A DNA stretch of 37,388 bases, taken from a virus (lineage: Duplodnaviria > Heunggongvirae > Uroviricota > Caudoviricetes). The first letter of the stretch is position 1; every line of letters starts with the position of its first letter. The stretch is from the IMG/VR virus record IMGVR_UViG_2778261448_000003. One strand, written 5' to 3'. This document shows, in pieces, positions 854-30,524 of the stretch. The translations under genes were made by a program, and so were the position numbers. The notes beneath the pieces are model-generated. The model searched no databases and had not been told where the DNA came from. It saw only the letters and a list, made by a program, of their open reading frames with translations.

Positions 854-3800
854 TACCGATATGCTCCGCTTAACTGACCACCATCACGGGACTGCTGTTG
901 CATAAAGTCCGCTGCTGCTTTTTTTCCGAGGTCATAAACCACCTTCAGGGCAGCCGGACCTATCTGCCCGTTCGTACCATCGTTATTGATCTCGATGTTG
1001 TACTGCGGGGCAAACATCACCATACCTGAACCACCAATATCCGCCACAACACCCAGCTTGCCATCAGCACCACGACGCAATGGCAGAATGGCTTCAGGCC
1101 CCGCTTCTCCCATCACACCCGCGCCTTTTGCAAAAGCAAAAAACGTCGGACGGTTAACCACCGTGCCACTGTAGCGACTCAAATCAGCAGACTGATAAAC
1201 ACCACCATCAGCATTGGGCGTCACACTGGCAGTTGCTGCACTCCCCCAGCCAAACGCCGAACCAATCCCCTTAACTGCCTGCATCATGGCCATCTGCGAC
1301 ATGATTTTTGCCAGATCAGAAAGGAGCGAGGCGGTAAAAGATTTGAAGTTCAGTTTTCCGGTGGTACAGAACGTCGCCAGTGCATTACCTGCGCTGTTAA
1401 ATGCCGCTGTAAACATCTGCTCAGCGGTACCTGCCGCGTTATCCGCACTCTCTGTAAAATTCTGAAACGCCCGCATGGCACCGTTTTTCCAGTCTGCCTG
1501 CATCAGTTCCTGCTCCTGCCAGTAACGTCTGTTTTCGTTCAGTTGCCGGTTAAGACTGTCTGTCAGCATCTGCTCAGCATTCCGGTATTCATCTGTGCCA
1601 TATGTTCCTTTCTGCTTACTGTCACGCTCCAGCTGTTCCCGCTGCTGCTGATATTTTTGTTGCAGACTGAACTGTGCCTGGTATCGCTGACGCTGTTTAT
1701 CCCCCATCCCTGTCGTGGCGATATCCAGGTCATGTTGCTGACGCAGAGCCCGCTCCTCTTCCGCCAGCTGGCTGGAAAGCTGAATGGATTTTTTCTTCAA
1801 ATCATTCAGCGCCGTCTGCTTCTGCAGCTCCTGCTGTTTTGCATCCAGCAGCGTCAGTGCCTGAATCAGCTCATCCTTGTGAGCCAGCACACTCTTTTCA
1901 TCTGCCGTCAGTTTTTTCCCGTCCAGGTCGCTGATGCGCTGCTGCAGAGCCAGAAGCTGTTTATGCGCTTCTGTCATCCTTTCCGTGGCAATGCCTGCTG
2001 ACTGTCTGGCAGCAGCAATCTGTCCTTCCACCTGTGCCTGTAGCTGACTGTACTGCAGCAATAACCGGGTGGCCTCATCATTACGGGTGGCAGACGTTTT
2101 TTTCTTAATGGCTTTTTCGTAACGTTCATTTTCACGCTGTATCGCTGCGTCCCTGACCGCCTGATCGGCGTACTGCATGGCATTAATACGCGCAATTTCA
2201 CGCTGATGTCGTGCTGCTTCCGTTTCGTTCATCCGGTTCAGCGCGGCATTTTCAGCATTCCGGCGTTTCTGCTGCTCCTGATAATTTCGCTCAGCCTGCT
2301 CTTTTGCATCCTGCAAATCCTGCTGGCGTTTTCGCTCTTGCAGCGCATCCAGTTGTTGCTGATCGTATTCCCCCGTGGTGGACACCTTAGTCCACGGAAA
2401 TTTCTTCGCCCGCTGAATTTTTTCCTGCAGCGACGCAATCTGCGCATCAAGGGAATCTTCCCGACCAATGTTCATGGCCGCATCCCAGAACTGCTTCCAC
2501 CAGTCAGACAAGGTTTGCAGCGTACTGCCCAGCGCATTGAGGTTATTATCAATATCCGACGTACGTTTACCGGTTTCCTCTGCCAGTGCAGACATGGCTA
2601 TCCGGGCGGCGTCACTGGTGCGCCCCTGCTCTCCGAGCACACGGATCTGTTCAAGCTGGGTGGCTGTCAGAAAATGCAGTTCATCATCCAGCGCCTTCGC
2701 AGCACTGACCGGATCATCCTTCAGCCGTTTAAACTGACTGATGGTGTCACTGACAGACTGCCCTACCGAGCGTTCCATCTGTGCGGCAGCTTTCGCCACC
2801 ATACCAATATCGTTACCGTGAAATGCACCGCTCCCCACTACCTGCGCCAGTGACCCCGCCATGGCATGTTGCGTGATGCCATTACCGGAAAGATTTTTAC
2901 TGAGCGCCCACAACTGCCCGGCTGTCACACCGGCATAGTGTCCGGTGAGCTCAAGCTGCCGGTTAAAGGCTTCGCCTTCTTCCCGCCCCTCCATCCAGGC
3001 TTTACCCAGACCAATAACCGCAGCAGTGATCCCTCCGATAACTCCCCCCACCGCCAGGCCTTTCGGAGTCATTAATTTATCAATCCAGCCGGCACGGTTA
3101 GCCAGGGTGATCCCGGAGCCACGAAGCGCACCGAAATTACCACGCGCCAGTTCACCAATCATGACCCCCAGCTCCCGACGGGCTGCCGCACTTTTCAGTT
3201 CCAGCGAATGTGTGGTGTTTCCAGCTTTCTCCATTTTACGGATGTACACCTCCGCGGCACTGCTGCACCCAAGTTGTGCCGCCTTTGCCCGAAGCAGTTC
3301 CGTCGTGGTCATTTTCTGGCGACTTGTCTGTTCTTTCAGCTGACGAATAAATGCGGTTTTCTGGCGGGTGGCCGTTTCCTCTGCCTGTGTCAGAACGCGG
3401 GTTTTCGCTGTCACCTCAGAAATCAGGGCCAGATAATCCTGCTGAGCAATCCCGCCACTGTTTCTGGCCTGTCGGATCTGCTGCTGAATACGCTGTAACT
3501 CCTGCAGCCCCGCGCTGGCCTGTTTTACGCTGTCGATCTGACGATAAAATGCGGCTGCCATCTTATCCTGCGCCGCAGCCAGCGCAGCCGCCTGAACCTG
3601 CTCCTCCCGCATCTGACGACTCAGGGCCTCCATCCGCAGGCGCGCCCTTTCCACATCTTCCGCCAGCGAAACATGCCCCTGCGCATGCTTCACCACGGCC
3701 TGAGTCTGTATCACCGTCGCGCTGGCAGCCTGTTTCTGACTTTCCTCAAACCGTTTCATACGGGCTTCGGCCCGCTCCGCCTCCCTTGCTGTACCATTCA

Positions 3801-25249: not shown

Positions 25250-27061
25250 ATGAAGCTACAGCAATTTAATATTAAAAATTACAAGTCGATAAAAGATGAA
25301 ATAGAAGTATATATCGATGATATAGTTGTGCTAATTGGTCCAAATAACTCTGGAAAGTCAACAATATTAGATGCGTATGAAAAGTTTGCATCTTTAGGAT
25401 CAGCAAAAGGCCTGACTGCTCATGATTTTTATAACTCAGATATATCTATACCAATTGAAATGTGCGGAATTTTCACTGATATCACTGATGATGATATTCG
25501 TACATTAGGGGGAGAGAAATGGTTTTATAAAGATGATGCTCTTGACAGAAGAAATATGGCAAGAAAGTATGGGGGAGATTGGGAGAAAAATAATACACCA
25601 TTGGAAAGCAAACTCTATTATTGTGTTAAATGGGTTTGGTCACATCCAGAAAAAGCAGCCCAAAAACAATCCTATGGCCTTGATGATGCCTCTGGCAAAC
25701 GCATATTTATTGATGGGGGCTCTGGGGGACTTGACACACTACTACAAAGCCGAGTTCCTCAACCAATAAGAATAAGCCCAGATAAATCCATGGATGAAAC
25801 TAAAAAAATTATCATAAGTTTCTTAAAGGAAGATGCAAAAGATGAGTTACTGAAAACAGGGGAAAGTAAAGCTGATATAATACAGAAAATACAAGAGTTG
25901 ACAGACACTCTTATGAAAGATTCCAAATCAAAAATCGATGATCTTCTACAGCAGGTCTCCAAATCATCATCATCTGTTTTTCCTGGGCTAGAACTGGAAT
26001 TAAACATACTTTCCAAGGATCCCGTAGATGCGGATGTTATGGTTTCAGAATCTAACCTTACAGTGAAAATGGATGGGATAAATAGCTCTCTTCTCGAGAA
26101 CCAAGGTCACGGTGTTCGCCGCTCCGTTTTATGGTCTGCTTTGCAAATTTTGACTCACGAATCTCATGCACGAGATAAAATAAAAAAAGCGAAAGGTAAG
26201 CCTATCTCTGTTGAGAAAAAACAATATATTTTATTGATTGATGAGCCTGAATCATTTCTTCACCCTCCTATAATTAGAAGTGCGAGGGACTCGCTTTATG
26301 ATTTTGCAGCAAACAATGATAACTGGCAGGTGATGGCTACAACACACTCCCCTGTATTCATAGACTTATCCAAGAAGCACACGACTATAATTAGGATAGA
26401 AAAAGACAAATCTCTAAATAAAACAATATCTACAGATGAACTATCTTTTTCTGAAGAGGAAAAAGATAATATGAAAATGATAAGATTATGTAACCCAATG
26501 GTTAATGAGTTTTTCTTTTACGACAATATAATATTAGTTGAAGGACCAACTGAAAAAATCGTCATTAACAAAATATGTGATATTGTCGGAGTTGATTATC
26601 ATATCATTGACTGTTTAGGAAAAGGGAATATAAAAACATTTGCTAAAATATTAAATCAATTTAACGTTGAGTATATAGCAGTACATGACTCCGACATTCC
26701 AAAATGCTTAAAGCAAGGAAGCGTTTCAGGTAATGGAGCATGGGGTTCAAATGTATCCATAATGAACGAATGCTCTAAAAGTAAAAAACCAATGGTATTT
26801 ATTCAAATACCTCATTTCGAAGGACTGTTTTTTAAAAATTTCAATCCATCAAACAAAGTTGAAACAGTAACATCAGTTCTATCTAATAATTTAACACCAG
26901 AATACAAAGCAATATTTGATACATATAGCAGAATTTTAAACAAAGATCCTTCTGTTTTTATCAGCTCCAACGAAAAAATGATAGACATGTATCATGCATT
27001 TTATGCCAGTAATAAAAACCAAATTGAGACGCTAAAGAATCCTGAAATCTGGATCCTTTAA
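25250..27061 (+). CDS. OLD-family nuclease: N-terminal ABC-type ATPase fused to C-terminal Toprim domain (class-1, stand-alone)
   Basis: 603 aa; Walker A GPNNSGKST, Walker B/D-loop LLIDEPESFLHP, Toprim motifs LVEGPTE and HDSD; very AT-rich gene unlike the flanking prophage DNA. Confidence 0.8.
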   Translation: MKLQQFNIKNYKSIKDEIEVYIDDIVVLIGPNNSGKSTILDAYEKFASLGSAKGLTAHDFYNSDISIPIEMCGIFTDITDDDIRTLGGEKWFYKDDALDRRNMARKYGGDWEKNNTPLESKLYYCVKWVWSHPEKAAQKQSYGLDDASGKRIFIDGGSGGLDTLLQSRVPQPIRISPDKSMDETKKIIISFLKEDAKDELLKTGESKADIIQKIQELTDTLMKDSKSKIDDLLQQVSKSSSSVFPGLELELNILSKDPVDADVMVSESNLTVKMDGINSSLLENQGHGVRRSVLWSALQILTHESHARDKIKKAKGKPISVEKKQYILLIDEPESFLHPPIIRSARDSLYDFAANNDNWQVMATTHSPVFIDLSKKHTTIIRIEKDKSLNKTISTDELSFSEEEKDNMKMIRLCNPMVNEFFFYDNIILVEGPTEKIVINKICDIVGVDYHIIDCLGKGNIKTFAKILNQFNVEYIAVHDSDIPKCLKQGSVSGNGAWGSNVSIMNECSKSKKPMVFIQIPHFEGLFFKNFNPSNKVETVTSVLSNNLTPEYKAIFDTYSRILNKDPSVFISSNEKMIDMYHAFYASNKNQIETLKNPEIWIL

Positions 27062-27092
27062 TTTTTAATGTTGTAATAAATATTATTTAGTA

Positions 27093-27120
27093 ACAACCCT
27101 CTATTGAGGGTTGTTTTTAA
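27093..27120 (+). terminator. Intrinsic terminator after the OLD-family gene
   Basis: ACAACCCTC-TATTG-AGGGTTGT followed by TTTTT. Confidence 0.65.
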
Positions 27121-27233
27121 TCATAAGAAATCTGACACACTCTATCATACTAAAAATAACACAACATGCATACAAAGTGTTTATATGCATAGACATATTA
27201 CCTCACATCTGAGTCAATACACTTTAATTTCAT

Positions 27234-27656
27234 TTACCGAACCAATTTCTTATTACTGGTATGATAAAAGTTCAACACACGCCGCATAACATCGCTCTTC
27301 CGGCACTCGCGACAGATTATGTTTAGACGCCTGTCATAGCGACGTATTTCTCCGTCTGGTAATGACCAGATAAGGTCCGGATCAACCACAGATGGTTTCT
27401 TCAGCTTTGCCCTCGAGAGTTTTTTGCGGGCGTTTTGCCAGTCTTTACGTGCCTGCTCCGACGGGAATAACCCGTAGCCAGAGTTGTATACATAACCGCT
27501 CGCAACCAGCTCTCTGGCAAGAACGCTCATCAGATATCTTGTCGCACCTGTCTTGGCTTCCAGTTGACGTAACGTCTCGCGCCCACTCTGGCGTACAAGT
27601 TCAACAACCTGCCCTTTAATTTTTTCACGCTCTTCTTGTGTAAAAACTTTTGCCAC
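27234..27656 (-). CDS. Hypothetical HTH-containing protein downstream of the replication gene (140 aa, GTG start)
   Basis: ORF in the early-right operon after the O-like gene; probable HTH around TLRQLEAKTGATRYLMSVLAREL. Confidence 0.5.
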   Translation of the reverse strand: MAKVFTQEEREKIKGQVVELVRQSGRETLRQLEAKTGATRYLMSVLARELVASGYVYNSGYGLFPSEQARKDWQNARKKLSRAKLKKPSVVDPDLIWSLPDGEIRRYDRRLNIICRECRKSDVMRRVLNFYHTSNKKLVR

Positions 27657-27696: not shown

Positions 27697-28773
27697 TTAC
27701 CCCCTGAAGCCCGGTGGAATTTCGGTATCCGGTTCAGAAATATGATTCACACAACGCTGGTTGTTCGTGCCGCTTACCTGGAGCAACCAGGGGTTTTCAA
27801 AATTCCGGTCCGGTCCAAAAAACGTCGTCGCCCGCTGAACAAATTCCGTTCCCGTTTTCCCGGTAACCGCTAGGTATCTTGCGTAACGCCTCACGCCATC
27901 CAGCATTGCCTCTGGTGGCACCCCCTCGCGTAATCTGGCCTTCCAGGCACTGAAAGCGGATTTCTTCGGGTTTGCCCCGGCACGCAACGGGTACTCCCGC
28001 CAGACCTGTTCGAACACATCCGGATAATCCACTCGTCCCACAGACTGCCCGGTGTTTTCCGGGACTACCCGATCGGCTTCCCGCTGAATGGCGGAATCGG
28101 CTTCAGGCTGCTGCAGTTGGTGTGATTGCTCCGGCCTTGCGGTCATCACCTGCTGCACAGCGCCCGAATCGGCTTTCAGCGCATACGCTGAATCGGCTTC
28201 CGGTGTCGTGCCTGCTGGCTGACCAAGATTGACGGTCTGAACATCCCCTGCCTGGTTCGTGGCGTTTTTTACGCCATGGACCATAGTGTTTTGATCTTCT
28301 TGATCTGTATCTTTATCTGTATCTTTATCTGTCGTGACTCGTCGTGACATGTGCGTGACATTTCGTGACGCGCCGTGACAATCGCCATTTTGTTCCCGCT
28401 TTCTTTCCCTCTCTCGCTGCGCCCTCTTGCGCTCTGCAGGAGATTTTGCGGTTTGCGAAATATTGCCGTTGTCCTCTTTAAGCACCTGGCGTTTTTCCCA
28501 TCCAGTGATTAAATCACCATCAAGTACCCGCCCCTGCATCGTCTGCAAAATTGAATCAATTACCTCTTCTGTCACGTCGAGCGCACTTGCCAAATCTTCT
28601 GTCGTGACATCAATGTGACCTCGCGTGACATTTCGTGACGCGCTCACCAGGAGGTGGATATACACTGCCATCACTGTTGCAATTGGCTGCCCTGACACCC
28701 TGGCAATTGTTCGCCACTTAGGGTCATTTGGCATGTCATGCCATAATCTGAGCCAGGCGTTAGCCATACTCAC
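27697..28773 (-). CDS. Replication initiation/replisome organiser protein (lambda O-like role), with internal iterons
   Basis: 358 aa; conserved phage replication-protein C-terminal region (VWREYPLRAG...FSAWKARLREGVPPEAMLDGVRRYARYLAVTGKTGTEFVQRATTFFGP); two iteron clusters inside the ORF. Confidence 0.7.
   Translation of the reverse strand: MSMANAWLRLWHDMPNDPKWRTIARVSGQPIATVMAVYIHLLVSASRNVTRGHIDVTTEDLASALDVTEEVIDSILQTMQGRVLDGDLITGWEKRQVLKEDNGNISQTAKSPAERKRAQRERERKREQNGDCHGASRNVTHMSRRVTTDKDTDKDTDQEDQNTMVHGVKNATNQAGDVQTVNLGQPAGTTPEADSAYALKADSGAVQQVMTARPEQSHQLQQPEADSAIQREADRVVPENTGQSVGRVDYPDVFEQVWREYPLRAGANPKKSAFSAWKARLREGVPPEAMLDGVRRYARYLAVTGKTGTEFVQRATTFFGPDRNFENPWLLQVSGTNNQRCVNHISEPDTEIPPGFRG
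28300..28640. repeat. Putative origin of replication: two clusters of CGTGAC iterons (28331-28380, five copies at ~10-bp spacing; 28600-28640, four copies) plus a tandem TGTATCTTTATC repeat
   Basis: Direct repeats visible in sequence, inside the O-like gene as lambda ori lies inside O. Confidence 0.65.
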
Positions 28774-28838: not shown

Positions 28839-29264
28839 TCAATGTACTGCCACAGCATTTCCTGCCGGGCCACCACGGTTCATCTGATTGAAACCGGCGA
28901 TTGCCACTGCGACAAAATCATCAGCGTCTCTCACCAATCGCTCCCGCGTCTCCACCAGCTCCCGAAAATAAGCTGAACTGTGGCTGCGCATTCTGGCCAC
29001 CAGCAAAGGCGGCATTGCCTTTTCGATCGCTGGTAACAACGCCTGAATTTTTTCAACTGCATCAGGGGTGTCTTTCTCTACCCAGCGGAAAATTTTCTGG
29101 GTATTGCGAGCCAGGGCTTCCGGATGGCTGTCGTCATACAGTTCAGGAAACGTCATACCCAACTCAAAATAAGCCTGGGTTATTCCAGCTGCCGGAACTT
29201 TTTCACCATCCGGATGCGCCCAGGCATTCATCGCCATGCGGATGTGCTCATGTTTGATTTTCAT
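28839..29264 (-). CDS. YdaT-like protein (Rac-type; cII-position gene)
   Basis: 141 aa starting MKIKHEHI, recalled as the Rac YdaT N-terminus; immediately downstream of the Cro-like gene. Confidence 0.55.
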   Translation of the reverse strand: MKIKHEHIRMAMNAWAHPDGEKVPAAGITQAYFELGMTFPELYDDSHPEALARNTQKIFRWVEKDTPDAVEKIQALLPAIEKAMPPLLVARMRSHSSAYFRELVETRERLVRDADDFVAVAIAGFNQMNRGGPAGNAVAVH

Positions 29265-29563
29265 GAATCAACTCCATCAGATAAGCATGCACTACAATCA
29301 CCTTCAGCATGAACTACATGTGTTTGCCCCAAACGAATGCCGCTCGCATACTCAGGCCAAATAAGCTCCCAATCATGGGGTCGTAGCTCCGCCCTACTTA
29401 CTTGGCCTTCCGTCGCAGATTCGATCATAAGGGCACGGGTTGGAGATATAGCTGCTCGTCCAGACGCCATTTGCGATAAGTAAGATGGCGATACACCAAG
29501 TCTGGCCGCGAATTTCTTAGCATCACCAACCCTCAATGATTTAATAAACTCTTTTAATGTCAT
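29261..29563 (-). CDS. Cro/YdaS-like HTH transcriptional regulator
   Basis: 100 aa; HTH segment FAARLGVSPSYLSQMASGR; first gene of the rightward early operon, divergent from the repressor gene. Confidence 0.7.
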   Translation of the reverse strand: MTLKEFIKSLRVGDAKKFAARLGVSPSYLSQMASGRAAISPTRALMIESATEGQVSRAELRPHDWELIWPEYASGIRLGQTHVVHAEGDCSACLSDGVDS

Positions 29564-29660
29564 ACCTTCCTCGGTTTAGTGTTTTTTTGCGAGTTTAGTG
29601 TTTAATAAACCATTAAGTCAAGTATTTGCTTGTTTAGTGATTACTAAAGATAATTACCAC
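29564..29660. promoter_or_regulatory. OR-like operator/promoter region: three copies of GTTTAGTG(T/A)TT between the divergent cro-like and repressor genes; candidate pRM-like promoter (-35 TTGCTT, -10 GATAAT) that would give a leaderless repressor mRNA
   Basis: Repeats at ~29574, 29593 and 29632; promoter hexamers spaced 17 bp apart ending just before the ATG at 29661. Confidence 0.55.
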
Positions 29661-30032
29661 ATGCAAAAAAAAGAAATTCGCCGTTTACGTCTCAAGGAGT
29701 GGTTTAAAGATAAAACTCTGCCACCCAAAGAGAAGAGCTACCTATCTCAACTAATGAGTGGGAGAGCATCGTTTGGAGAAAAGGCTGCCAGAAGAATAGA
29801 GCAAACATACGGGATGCCGGAAGGGTATCTGGATGCGGAATACGCAGAACAACCGGAGGTTTCTCCACCACATGCAGGGTTAACGCCTAATCAACTGGAA
29901 TTATTGCAGATTTTTTCAGCCTTCCCTGAGGATGAGCAACGCCAGATAATCAGCGAGTTAAAGCAGAAAAAAGAATCAATGGAAGATCTCATAGCGAGAT
30001 GGATTGCGGCGCAAAAATGCCGCCGCGCCTGA
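29661..30032 (+). CDS. CI/RacR-like prophage repressor (HTH, no peptidase domain)
   Basis: ORF 29598..30032; start placed at MQKKEIRR; HTH around KSYLSQLMSGRASFGEKAARRIE; sits in the cI position. Confidence 0.6.
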   Translation: MQKKEIRRLRLKEWFKDKTLPPKEKSYLSQLMSGRASFGEKAARRIEQTYGMPEGYLDAEYAEQPEVSPPHAGLTPNQLELLQIFSAFPEDEQRQIISELKQKKESMEDLIARWIAAQKCRRA

Positions 30033-30052
30033 GTTATAAAACCGGAGGAAAC

Positions 30053-30244
30053 ATGAATAGAGCCCTTTCACCAATGGTTTCTGAATTTGAAACCATTGAA
30101 CAAGAAAACAGTTACAACGAATGGCTGCGTGCGAAAGTAGCAACGAGCCTTGCAGATCCGCGCCCAGCAATTCCCCATGACGAAGTTGAGCGCAGAATGG
30201 CAGAACGCTTTGCTAAAATGCGCAAGGAACGGAGCAAGCAGTAA
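30053..30244 (+). CDS. ParD/RHH-like antitoxin (63 aa)
   Basis: Start MNRALSP preceded by GGAGGA RBS; stop is 1 nt before the toxin ATG; sequence character of ParD-type antitoxins. Confidence 0.6.
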   Translation: MNRALSPMVSEFETIEQENSYNEWLRAKVATSLADPRPAIPHDEVERRMAERFAKMRKERSKQ

Positions 30245-30245
30245 A

Positions 30246-30524
30246 ATGTTACCCGTGTTATGGCTTGAAAGCGCAGATACCGACCTAGATGATATAACTA
30301 GTTATATTGCTCGTTTCGACATAGATGCGGCTGAACGCTTATGGCAGCGATTAAGGGGTTGTGTGCTGCCGTTATCCGAACATCCGTATTTATACCCACC
30401 AAGCGACAGAGTACCCGGCTTGCGTGAGATTGTAGCCCACCCTAACTATATAATTCTATACCGCGTAACAACATCAAGCGTTGAAGTAGTAAACGTGATC
30501 CACGCAAGACGCCAGTTTCCCTAA
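30246..30524 (+). CDS. ParE/RelE-family toxin (92 aa)
   Basis: Start MLPVLWLESADTDLDDITSYIARF...; C-terminal YIILYRVTTSSVEVVNVIHARR typical of ParE/RelE plasmid-stabilisation toxins. Confidence 0.65.
   Translation: MLPVLWLESADTDLDDITSYIARFDIDAAERLWQRLRGCVLPLSEHPYLYPPSDRVPGLREIVAHPNYIILYRVTTSSVEVVNVIHARRQFP

Follow-up and report, generated by a model that had tools for sequence, protein, structure and literature searches.

The window analysed here is a stretch of 37,388 nucleotides (nt) of a virus of the class Caudoviricetes (IMG/VR record IMGVR_UViG_2778261448_000003). Its minus strand carries a replication initiator gene which contains two arrays of a short hexamer, an AT-rich tract and a palindrome. 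Comparisons with related loci make it very probable that array 1, array 2, AT-rich tract and palindrome, in this order, are the replication origin of a Rac/Qin-like lambdoid Escherichia coli prophage, situated inside the initiator gene. The gene and the elements are listed with coordinates of the window; lengths are in base pairs (bp) or amino acids (aa).

27697..28773, minus strand: replication initiator gene, 358 aa from a GTG start (list of open reading frames, phrog_3729 match)
28603..28639, minus strand: iteron array 1, GTCACG at 28639-28634 and 28629-28624, GTCACA at 28619-28614, GTCACG at 28608-28603; steps of 10, 10 and 11 bp
28571..28576, plus strand: single inverted hexamer, GTCACG on the plus strand, 27 bp past array 1 in gene orientation
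28333..28379, minus strand: iteron array 2, five GTCACG in gene orientation from 28379, 28369, 28359, 28348 and 28338; steps of 10, 10, 11 and 10 bp
28284..28332, no strand assigned: AT-rich tract, purine-rich on the coding strand, holding a 12-bp tandem repeat at 28306-28329
28253..28283, no strand assigned: imperfect palindrome with 13-nt arms and a 5-nt A/T loop, beginning 50 bp past the last iteron

The initiator gene and its hexamer arrays

The initiator matches the profile phrog_3729, 'replication initiation protein', with E = 5.3e-256 (residues 3-358 against profile positions 1-356 of 356). NCBI cluster P0001, 'phage replisome organizer', has 5786 members and is 98% identical to it. The GTG at 28773 is the start chosen by the program that lists open reading frames (region 28765-28773). 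Homologues begin at ATG 28767 (MANAWLRLW...), with AAGAGG close by, and this ATG is likely the true start; the protein then has the 356 aa of cluster P0001. Two isolated, i.e., active, phages, Tritos and Evi, carry the gene with 98-99% identity. At least in part it is found in 2535 of 5426 complete E. coli genomes; Stx-converting phages and O157:H7 genomes share the C-terminal half only.

The original prediction, made from the window alone, had pointed to five CGTGAC copies at helical-turn spacing. They are as described, starting on the plus strand at 28333, 28343, 28354, 28364 and 28374 with steps of 10, 11, 10 and 10 bp. This array 2 corresponds to gene nt 395-441 of 1077 and codes for aa 132-147 of a disordered linker, the hexamers being read in three frames. 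Array 1 begins 135 nt into the coding sequence and codes for a loop, aa 45-57, of the N-terminal domain. It had been described as four copies. The cluster exists, its make-up is different: three exact direct CGTGAC copies (28603, 28624, 28634), one TGTGAC variant (28614-28619) and one exact inverted copy. The separation of about 270 bp holds when counted from first copy to first copy; the in-register repeat offset is 260 bp. At this offset repeat finding detected a 39-nt direct repeat across both arrays, 28341-28379 against 28601-28639, which is 72% identical. Next to array 2 the expected tandem repeat is present, with TGTATCTTTATC at 28306-28317 and again at 28318-28329, with a degenerate third unit at 28298-28308. 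All copies of these repeats are located within the 358-aa reading frame.

The entire window contains 17 CGTGAC hexamers, in line with 15.3 +/- 3.5 expected from shuffled sequence. Yet nine of the 17 reside within 307 bp (binomial P = 3.9e-15; about 5e-13 when corrected for the number of windows). This clustering is not due to chance. A scan of the whole window for GTCACG with one mismatch returned 326 matches, which is chance level and uninformative.

Hexamer arrays in related loci

A scan with one genome per species yielded 50 related loci, 49 of them usable, from Enterobacteriaceae, Pseudomonas, Bordetella, Chromobacterium, Stenotrophomonas, Acidovorax and others, i.e., from Gamma- and Betaproteobacteria and further groups. 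The original prediction had named absence of the repeats from homologous initiator genes, together with failure of initiator-dependent replication, as what would refute it. As to the repeats, the opposite is the case: 41 of the 49 loci have two arrays, made up of the commonest periodic 5-mer and located at gene nt about 120-190 and about 350-480, and array 2 is at the equivalent place in 43.

When each region was classified independently, the hexamer type was the same in both arrays of all 41 two-array genes (GTCACG in 25, GTAACG in 6, CGAACG in 10; none discordant). Each array has 2-7 copies, most commonly 4 in both. Close relatives carry 7 additional aa in array 1, that is 21 bp or two iterons, in frame. 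Likewise, Stx phages have gained two iterons together with 13 aa in frame (PMC7466680).

Conservation as DNA

Repeats in a coding region may be nothing but peptide repeats or low-complexity coding sequence devoid of any function as DNA, and the region does encode a repetitive peptide (SRNVT..., TDKDTDKD) in a disordered linker. This explanation is contradicted by the use of all three frames and by codon fixation. The period of 10 or 11 bp puts the hexamer into every frame: in gene orientation GTCACG is read as C-H-G, A-S-R, V-T, M-S-R and V-T. In the 41 genes frames 0, 1 and 2 are occupied 144, 90 and 91 times, and 204 of 238 spacings between neighbours are 10, 11 or 21 bp.

Synonymous sites were examined in 20 diverged homologues with a GC content of the gene between 41 and 69%. 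Outside the iterons invariant residues use two to six synonymous codons; R1 is encoded by six, the most frequent one reaching 35%, and T14 by four, with 30% for the most frequent. Within the iterons V41 (GTC), T42 (ACG), G44 (GGT), H45 (CAC), V48 (GTC) and T49 (ACG) each have the same codon in 20 of 20 homologues, S38 (TCA) in 19 and A37 (GCG) in 18. R43, a spacer codon situated between them, is written with four different codons. The inverted hexamer behaves like the iterons, the overlapping V59 codon being GTG in 17 of 17 homologues. The codon pattern shows that the hexamers are maintained as DNA and not as peptide.

The original prediction had also assigned a low-complexity linker, TDKDTDKDTD, to the repeats. 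The tandem repeat does encode it. The peptide is a by-product of a conserved DNA element, however, because relatives read the AT-rich run in other frames (DKDK..., LDKIREE..., DRLDKRR...). Further, EADSA repeats nearby, which are truly in frame, behave otherwise, with spacings of 24, 72 and 24 bp. Taken together, a purely peptide-borne origin of the hexamer arrays is close to untenable.

The EADSA repeats deserve mention in their own right. Four in-frame copies of GAAGCCGAT(T)C at 28071-28199 on the minus strand encode (P)EADSA in the disordered linker. In the homologues P0006 and P0002 sequence between copies is deleted. Distant relatives retain the motif at the peptide level, and it could be an acidic motif for protein binding.

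Dual coding is seen here in a clean natural form: the gene of a DNA-binding domain contains, spread over three frames, the putative binding sites of this very domain, and these sites are frozen at synonymous positions across large evolutionary distances.

Natural exchange of the N-terminal domain

Two loci amount to natural domain swaps. The first, L055, belongs to an E. coli prophage and has its initiator at 2501-3610. Its YdaT and DUF977 proteins, encoded on either side of the initiator, are 96 and 89% identical to those of the window, and it shares the C-terminal half of the initiator with the window. The N-domain has no relationship to that of the window; initiators of this kind form a second class in E. 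coli prophages. L055 has no GTCACG hexamers; instead it has AAGGGGCTTYRAAG at 11-bp spacing, again as two arrays, 256 bp apart, with two copies in the part coding for the N-domain and three in the linker; next come a purine-rich tract and the palindrome of the window. The second locus, L056, has kept the N-domain of the window type and the GTCACG arrays, has a DnaT-like C-domain and carries a lambda-P-like gene in place of DUF977 downstream. Therefore, the iterons travel with the N-domain and with nothing else. The hexamers change when, and only when, the initiator N-domain changes.

The same two loci bear on the question whether the hexamers are bound by some other factor, be it a host protein, a YdaT/CII-like or a DUF977/Ren-like protein. 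DUF977 has a weak MarR-like match, and binding of the hexamers by the initiator is supported indirectly, by their co-variation with the N-domain. However, the YdaT and DUF977 proteins of L055 are essentially those of the window, yet the iterons differ, and only the initiator N-domain differs with them. L056 keeps GTCACG though DUF977 has been replaced. A binding factor other than the initiator is exceedingly improbable.

AT-rich tract, module junction and palindrome

The 40 bp past the last iteron of the window have a GC content of 0.30 vs 0.54 for the gene. For 42 genes (the 41 loci plus the window) the corresponding means are 33% vs 55.6%, with 74% purines on the coding strand. Array 2 is always directly followed by a run of the AGATAAAGATAAAGA or AGATACAGATACAGA type, and such an AT-rich tract is present even in genes of 60-69% GC. 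The tract 28284-28332 is the probable DNA unwinding element.

The palindrome is next in line. As a single strand it folds with -8.7 kcal/mol in sense (z = -4.0) and with -10.9 kcal/mol in antisense orientation (z = -5.7). In L055 and L057-L059 the palindrome, GGTTCATGGCG-A5NN-CGCCA(G)TGAACC, is nearly invariant; the proteins are only 52-65% identical to that of the window. The identity profile peaks at the palindrome with 0.78-0.86 vs 0.50 overall, in a region predicted to be disordered protein. C-modules of the DnaT type have a palindrome of their own (ACGCGCAYGTGCGCG) at the same offset.

The tract is also the place where modules are exchanged. Matches to the initiator gene in E. coli break between 28292 and 28310, inside the AT-rich tract, and protein alignment demonstrates an exchange of N- and C-modules there. 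Tract and palindrome might be kept solely as a recombination junction for lambdoid module exchange and not as replication elements. The shuffling of N- and C-modules at precisely this point fits such a function, as does the fact that a tract of the GATAAAGAT type is common to unrelated initiators, Rac YdaU included. It leaves unexplained the phased hexamers, the frozen synonymous sites and the switching of hexamer type along with the N-domain. Junction and origin are compatible, because the O types of lambda have their junction at the origin as well. That the tract and palindrome are exclusively a junction is very improbable.

A different role of the arrays has to be considered here. They may bind the initiator for autoregulation or copy control, by roadblock, titration or handcuffing like incA and incC of P1 and F, with the real origin elsewhere. 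Array 1 starts only 135 nt into the coding sequence and an inverted copy is near; lambda needs no second array; and plasmid iteron systems use second arrays for control. On the other hand, array 2 abuts the conserved AT-rich tract and the palindrome in the order known from lambda and with lambda-like offsets. No promoter above chance is nearby: a promoter scan in the vicinity of the origin gave nothing above shuffled sequences. Further, a control function of array 1 is compatible with an origin function of array 2. We regard regulation without an origin at this site as unlikely.

Some additional features of the region are recorded here. The AT-rich tract has two GATC (Dam) sites, at 28293-28296 and 28302-28305, 9 bp apart, and enterobacterial relatives also have GATC in the tract (AAAGATCTAAAAGAT). 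A DnaA-box scan produced only one-mismatch matches at chance level in the origin. The palindrome together with a T-rich run (28253-28292, plus strand, i.e., antisense to the initiator) scores as an intrinsic terminator, the only one called on the plus strand, and the palindrome could stop antisense transcripts. In seven loci (L007, L008, L012, L014, L025, L042 and L060) a C-rich motif, CCCCC-N-CCCCCC...GGGGG, is located just past the AT-rich tract, where another C-domain type begins; as it encodes PPLxPxxG, it may act as a protein motif, as a DNA hairpin or in both ways.

Architecture of the initiator protein

According to an AlphaFold2 model the initiator has a folded N-domain (aa 1-99), a basic helix (112-128), a disordered stretch (130-245), a folded C-domain (246-333) and a tail. 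The corresponding segments of the window are:

28477..28773, minus strand: N-terminal domain aa 1-99, winged helix, presumed iteron-binding domain
28390..28440, minus strand: basic helix aa 112-128 (AERKRAQRERERKREQ), predicted
27775..28038, minus strand: folded C-terminal domain aa 246-333, predicted local distance difference test score (pLDDT) 81-94
27700..27771, minus strand: C-terminal tail aa 335-358, ending ISEPDTEIPPGFRG, matching the extreme C-terminus of host DnaT

The N-domain has a winged-helix fold. Array 1 maps to a loop of the model between helices 31-47 and 58-65; the disordered linker takes up array 2 (pLDDT about 30) and the AT-rich tract. Therefore, the DNA elements occupy those parts of the protein which tolerate change.

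Residues 116 and 119 of the basic helix follow the iteron type: K/Q with GTCACG, V/Y(F) with GTAACG and A/W with CGAACG. Among the 41 genes these columns are the two most discriminating ones, even when the loop encoded by the iterons is included. As specificity residues they are suggestive only, because shared ancestry confounds the result.

The C-domain is exchangeable. Relatives of the P0071 type have a DnaT-like domain, PF17948, at the same position, and a Phage_lambda_P gene. Relatives with the same C-domain as the window have a DnaC/IstB-like ATPase gene next to the initiator; the window initiator does not. The tail aligns to positions 156-179 of 179 of NCBIfam NF002770 (E = 1.4e-3), and the DnaT chains 6aep, 2ru8 and 9zbt in the PDB also match. 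It is shared with Rac YdaU (13 of 19 residues identical, E = 6e-6). The tail may be a short docking motif for a partner in host helicase loading.

Genetic setting

The neighbours of the initiator are:

29598-30032, plus strand: cI-like repressor
29261-29563, minus strand: Cro/YdaS-like gene
28839-29264, minus strand: CII/YdaT-like gene, upstream neighbour of the initiator
27234-27656, minus strand: DUF977/Ren-like gene, next after the initiator

The list of open reading frames in the window and the family matches contain no P-like, DnaC-like or DnaB-like gene after the initiator, that is, neither a phage helicase loader nor a helicase. The element is closed by a RecE-like exonuclease and an integrase, a layout like that of phage Tritos. 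A search of a plasmid collection gave prophage-like matches only.

Adjoining the cI-like repressor are a PaaA2-type antitoxin and a ParE toxin (29999-30524, plus strand). Just past the replication module, on the opposite strand, a 603-aa OLD-like protein with an AAA_15 ATPase and an OLD-like TOPRIM domain is encoded (25250-27061, plus strand). The 3' end of this gene and the adjoining flank are AT-rich, with a GC content of 0.18-0.40 at 27000-27299. The gene is probably anti-phage defence cargo.

The probable origin and how it may operate

The view that iterons of a prophage origin reside within the initiator gene, as in lambda, had been put forward in the original prediction. It is supported by the frozen synonymous sites, by the joint switching of both arrays, by replacement of the iterons together with the N-domain, and by the lambda-like tract and palindrome.

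Several observations weigh against it. Counted between first copies, the arrays are 157 to 376 bp apart in the 41 genes, mostly 220-282, and no strict helical phasing between the two arrays is evident. In eight of the 49 loci array 1 is not clear: L037 and L049 have array 2 only, three low-GC loci have the AT-rich run only, and L043, L048 and L050 contain repeats of other kinds. Independent switches of hexamer type, on which the co-variation is based, are few. The putative role of array 1 has no counterpart in lambda, which works with one array. Stable hairpins downstream of the AT-rich tract were tested for in all 42 genes; the median quantile of 0.078 is not clearly above chance. A universal hairpin is not claimed because the best of about 17 overlapping windows could give this value by chance; convincing palindromes are limited to those which belong to a particular C-domain type. 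In the literature searched we found no replication, binding or unwinding experiment for this initiator family. Finally, the partner of the DnaT tail is conjectural, and so is the way in which DnaT recruits DnaB/DnaC (PMC5778457, PMC13377028).

An origin of this construction may operate as follows. Early transcription from the cro side would make the initiator and pass through the origin. The winged-helix N-domain, perhaps together with the basic helix aa 112-128, would bind the GTCACG hexamers. We propose that the initiator molecules are aligned on the same side of the double helix because the hexamers are spaced by one helical turn. The five-site array beside the AT-rich tract would distort the DNA and melt the tract, and the four-site array 260 bp upstream may assist by looping or wrapping. 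The C-terminal domain and the DnaT-like tail would then recruit host DnaB-DnaC or the restart-primosome machinery to the opened DNA. Such a recruitment by the tail would account for the lack of a P-like or DnaC-like gene after the initiator.

It is conceivable, though rather doubtful, that the two-array layout is a required convergent design in which the arrays are looped to open the origin and a tail mimicking DnaT hands the DNA to host DnaC-DnaB or the restart machinery. The layout occurs in at least three unrelated N-domain classes, the window family, the P0033 type and Rac YdaU: a phased array is next to the unwinding element, and a second one is about 220-280 bp upstream in the sequence coding for the iteron-binding domain. 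If this were true, it would be a sequence-specific phage origin which needs no phage-encoded loader.

The gene is present, at least in part, in about half of the complete E. coli genomes and has relatives across Proteobacteria. A defined origin would help to explain prophage replication after induction, including that of relatives in Stx-converting phages and O157:H7 genomes, and to build compatible vectors. The DnaT-like tail, which Rac YdaU also has, suggests that origin-specific initiation is connected with loading of the host DnaB helicase.

Comparison with known systems

Literature searches for iterons with 'replisome organizer', DnaT with iterons, and a GTCACG iteron returned nothing on this initiator family. 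The paper on the 'Eru' replication types of Stx phages does not cover it, and no described origin was found for it.

The closest parallel is lambda. The label 'O-like' given in the original prediction is apt for position and design; no homology to lambda O is detectable. Pfam finds no family in the initiator at E <= 0.01, Phage_rep_O and PF09681 included, and as a lambda O homologue it was rejected, with a BLASTP E value of 0.083 confined to the low-complexity linker. The likeness is in the organisation. In lambda the initiator gene also follows cro and a cII-like gene and likewise contains the origin, in the linker which joins a DNA-binding N-domain to an exchangeable C-domain, with the module junction at the origin. 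The lambda iterons at nt 349-433 of 900 in O are followed by an A-rich tract of about 45 bp and a palindrome. The comparison with lambda ori suggested in the original prediction thus reveals the same order and similar offsets, the lambda palindrome (12-nt arms) being 44 bp after iteron 4 and that of the window 50 bp after the last iteron. The number of iterons changes in in-frame steps in Stx phages (PMC7466680), as in the window family. There are clear differences. The window has direct-repeat cores of 6 bp every 10-11 bp, whereas lambda has four dyad-symmetric sites of 17-18 bp, about 20-24 bp apart. Only the window has a second array, 260 bp upstream in the sequence coding for the DNA-binding domain; lambda has one array. 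Lambda has a P gene downstream, whereas the window initiator has none, but possesses the DnaT-like tail.

The name 'replisome organizer' was transferred to the window family by databases from SPP1. In SPP1 oriL is within gene 38, and G38P has an N-terminal DNA-binding part. A relationship to G38P (PF09681) was rejected (hhalign probability 0.2%, no Pfam match), and gene 38 is followed by the phage's own loader and helicase, genes 39 and 40, neither of which the window has.

RepA_N-type initiators of iteron plasmids (PDB 4pta) and the DnaD N-terminal domain resemble the window initiator at the level of fold only, with 9-14% identity. The RepA_N-type comparison further differs in setting, which in the window is a phage with the origin inside the coding sequence.

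YdaU/YdaV of the Rac prophage of E. coli K-12 share the gene order YdaS, YdaT, initiator. The ydaU gene (L060, 2620-3477) has TGTTCAA-type repeats in the linker and two more copies upstream in the part coding for the N-domain, followed, as in the window layout, by a GATACAGATAAAGAT run and a GC-rich, palindrome-like CCCCCCCTAAATCCCCCCCGGGGG. The YdaU tail, IPPGFRG, is the same as in the window. Rac YdaU differs by an unrelated N-domain (DUF1376) and C-domain, another iteron and the DnaC-like YdaV downstream. For Rac an active origin, oriJ, has been reported (PMC3945230). Its exact position was not found in the literature; the origin-like layout in ydaU may be the unmapped oriJ.

As to DnaT, the last 22-24 residues of the window protein match its C-terminus, and sister initiators have PF17948 at that position. 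The window protein as a whole is not a DnaT: it scores 18.3 bits vs a family cut-off of 201 and is devoid of the DnaT N-terminal domain and three-helix bundle.

In summary, the candidate origin in the window is lambda-style in design and resides in a non-homologous initiator. It differs from that of lambda by short phased iterons, by a second array and, probably, by loading of the host helicase via the tail.

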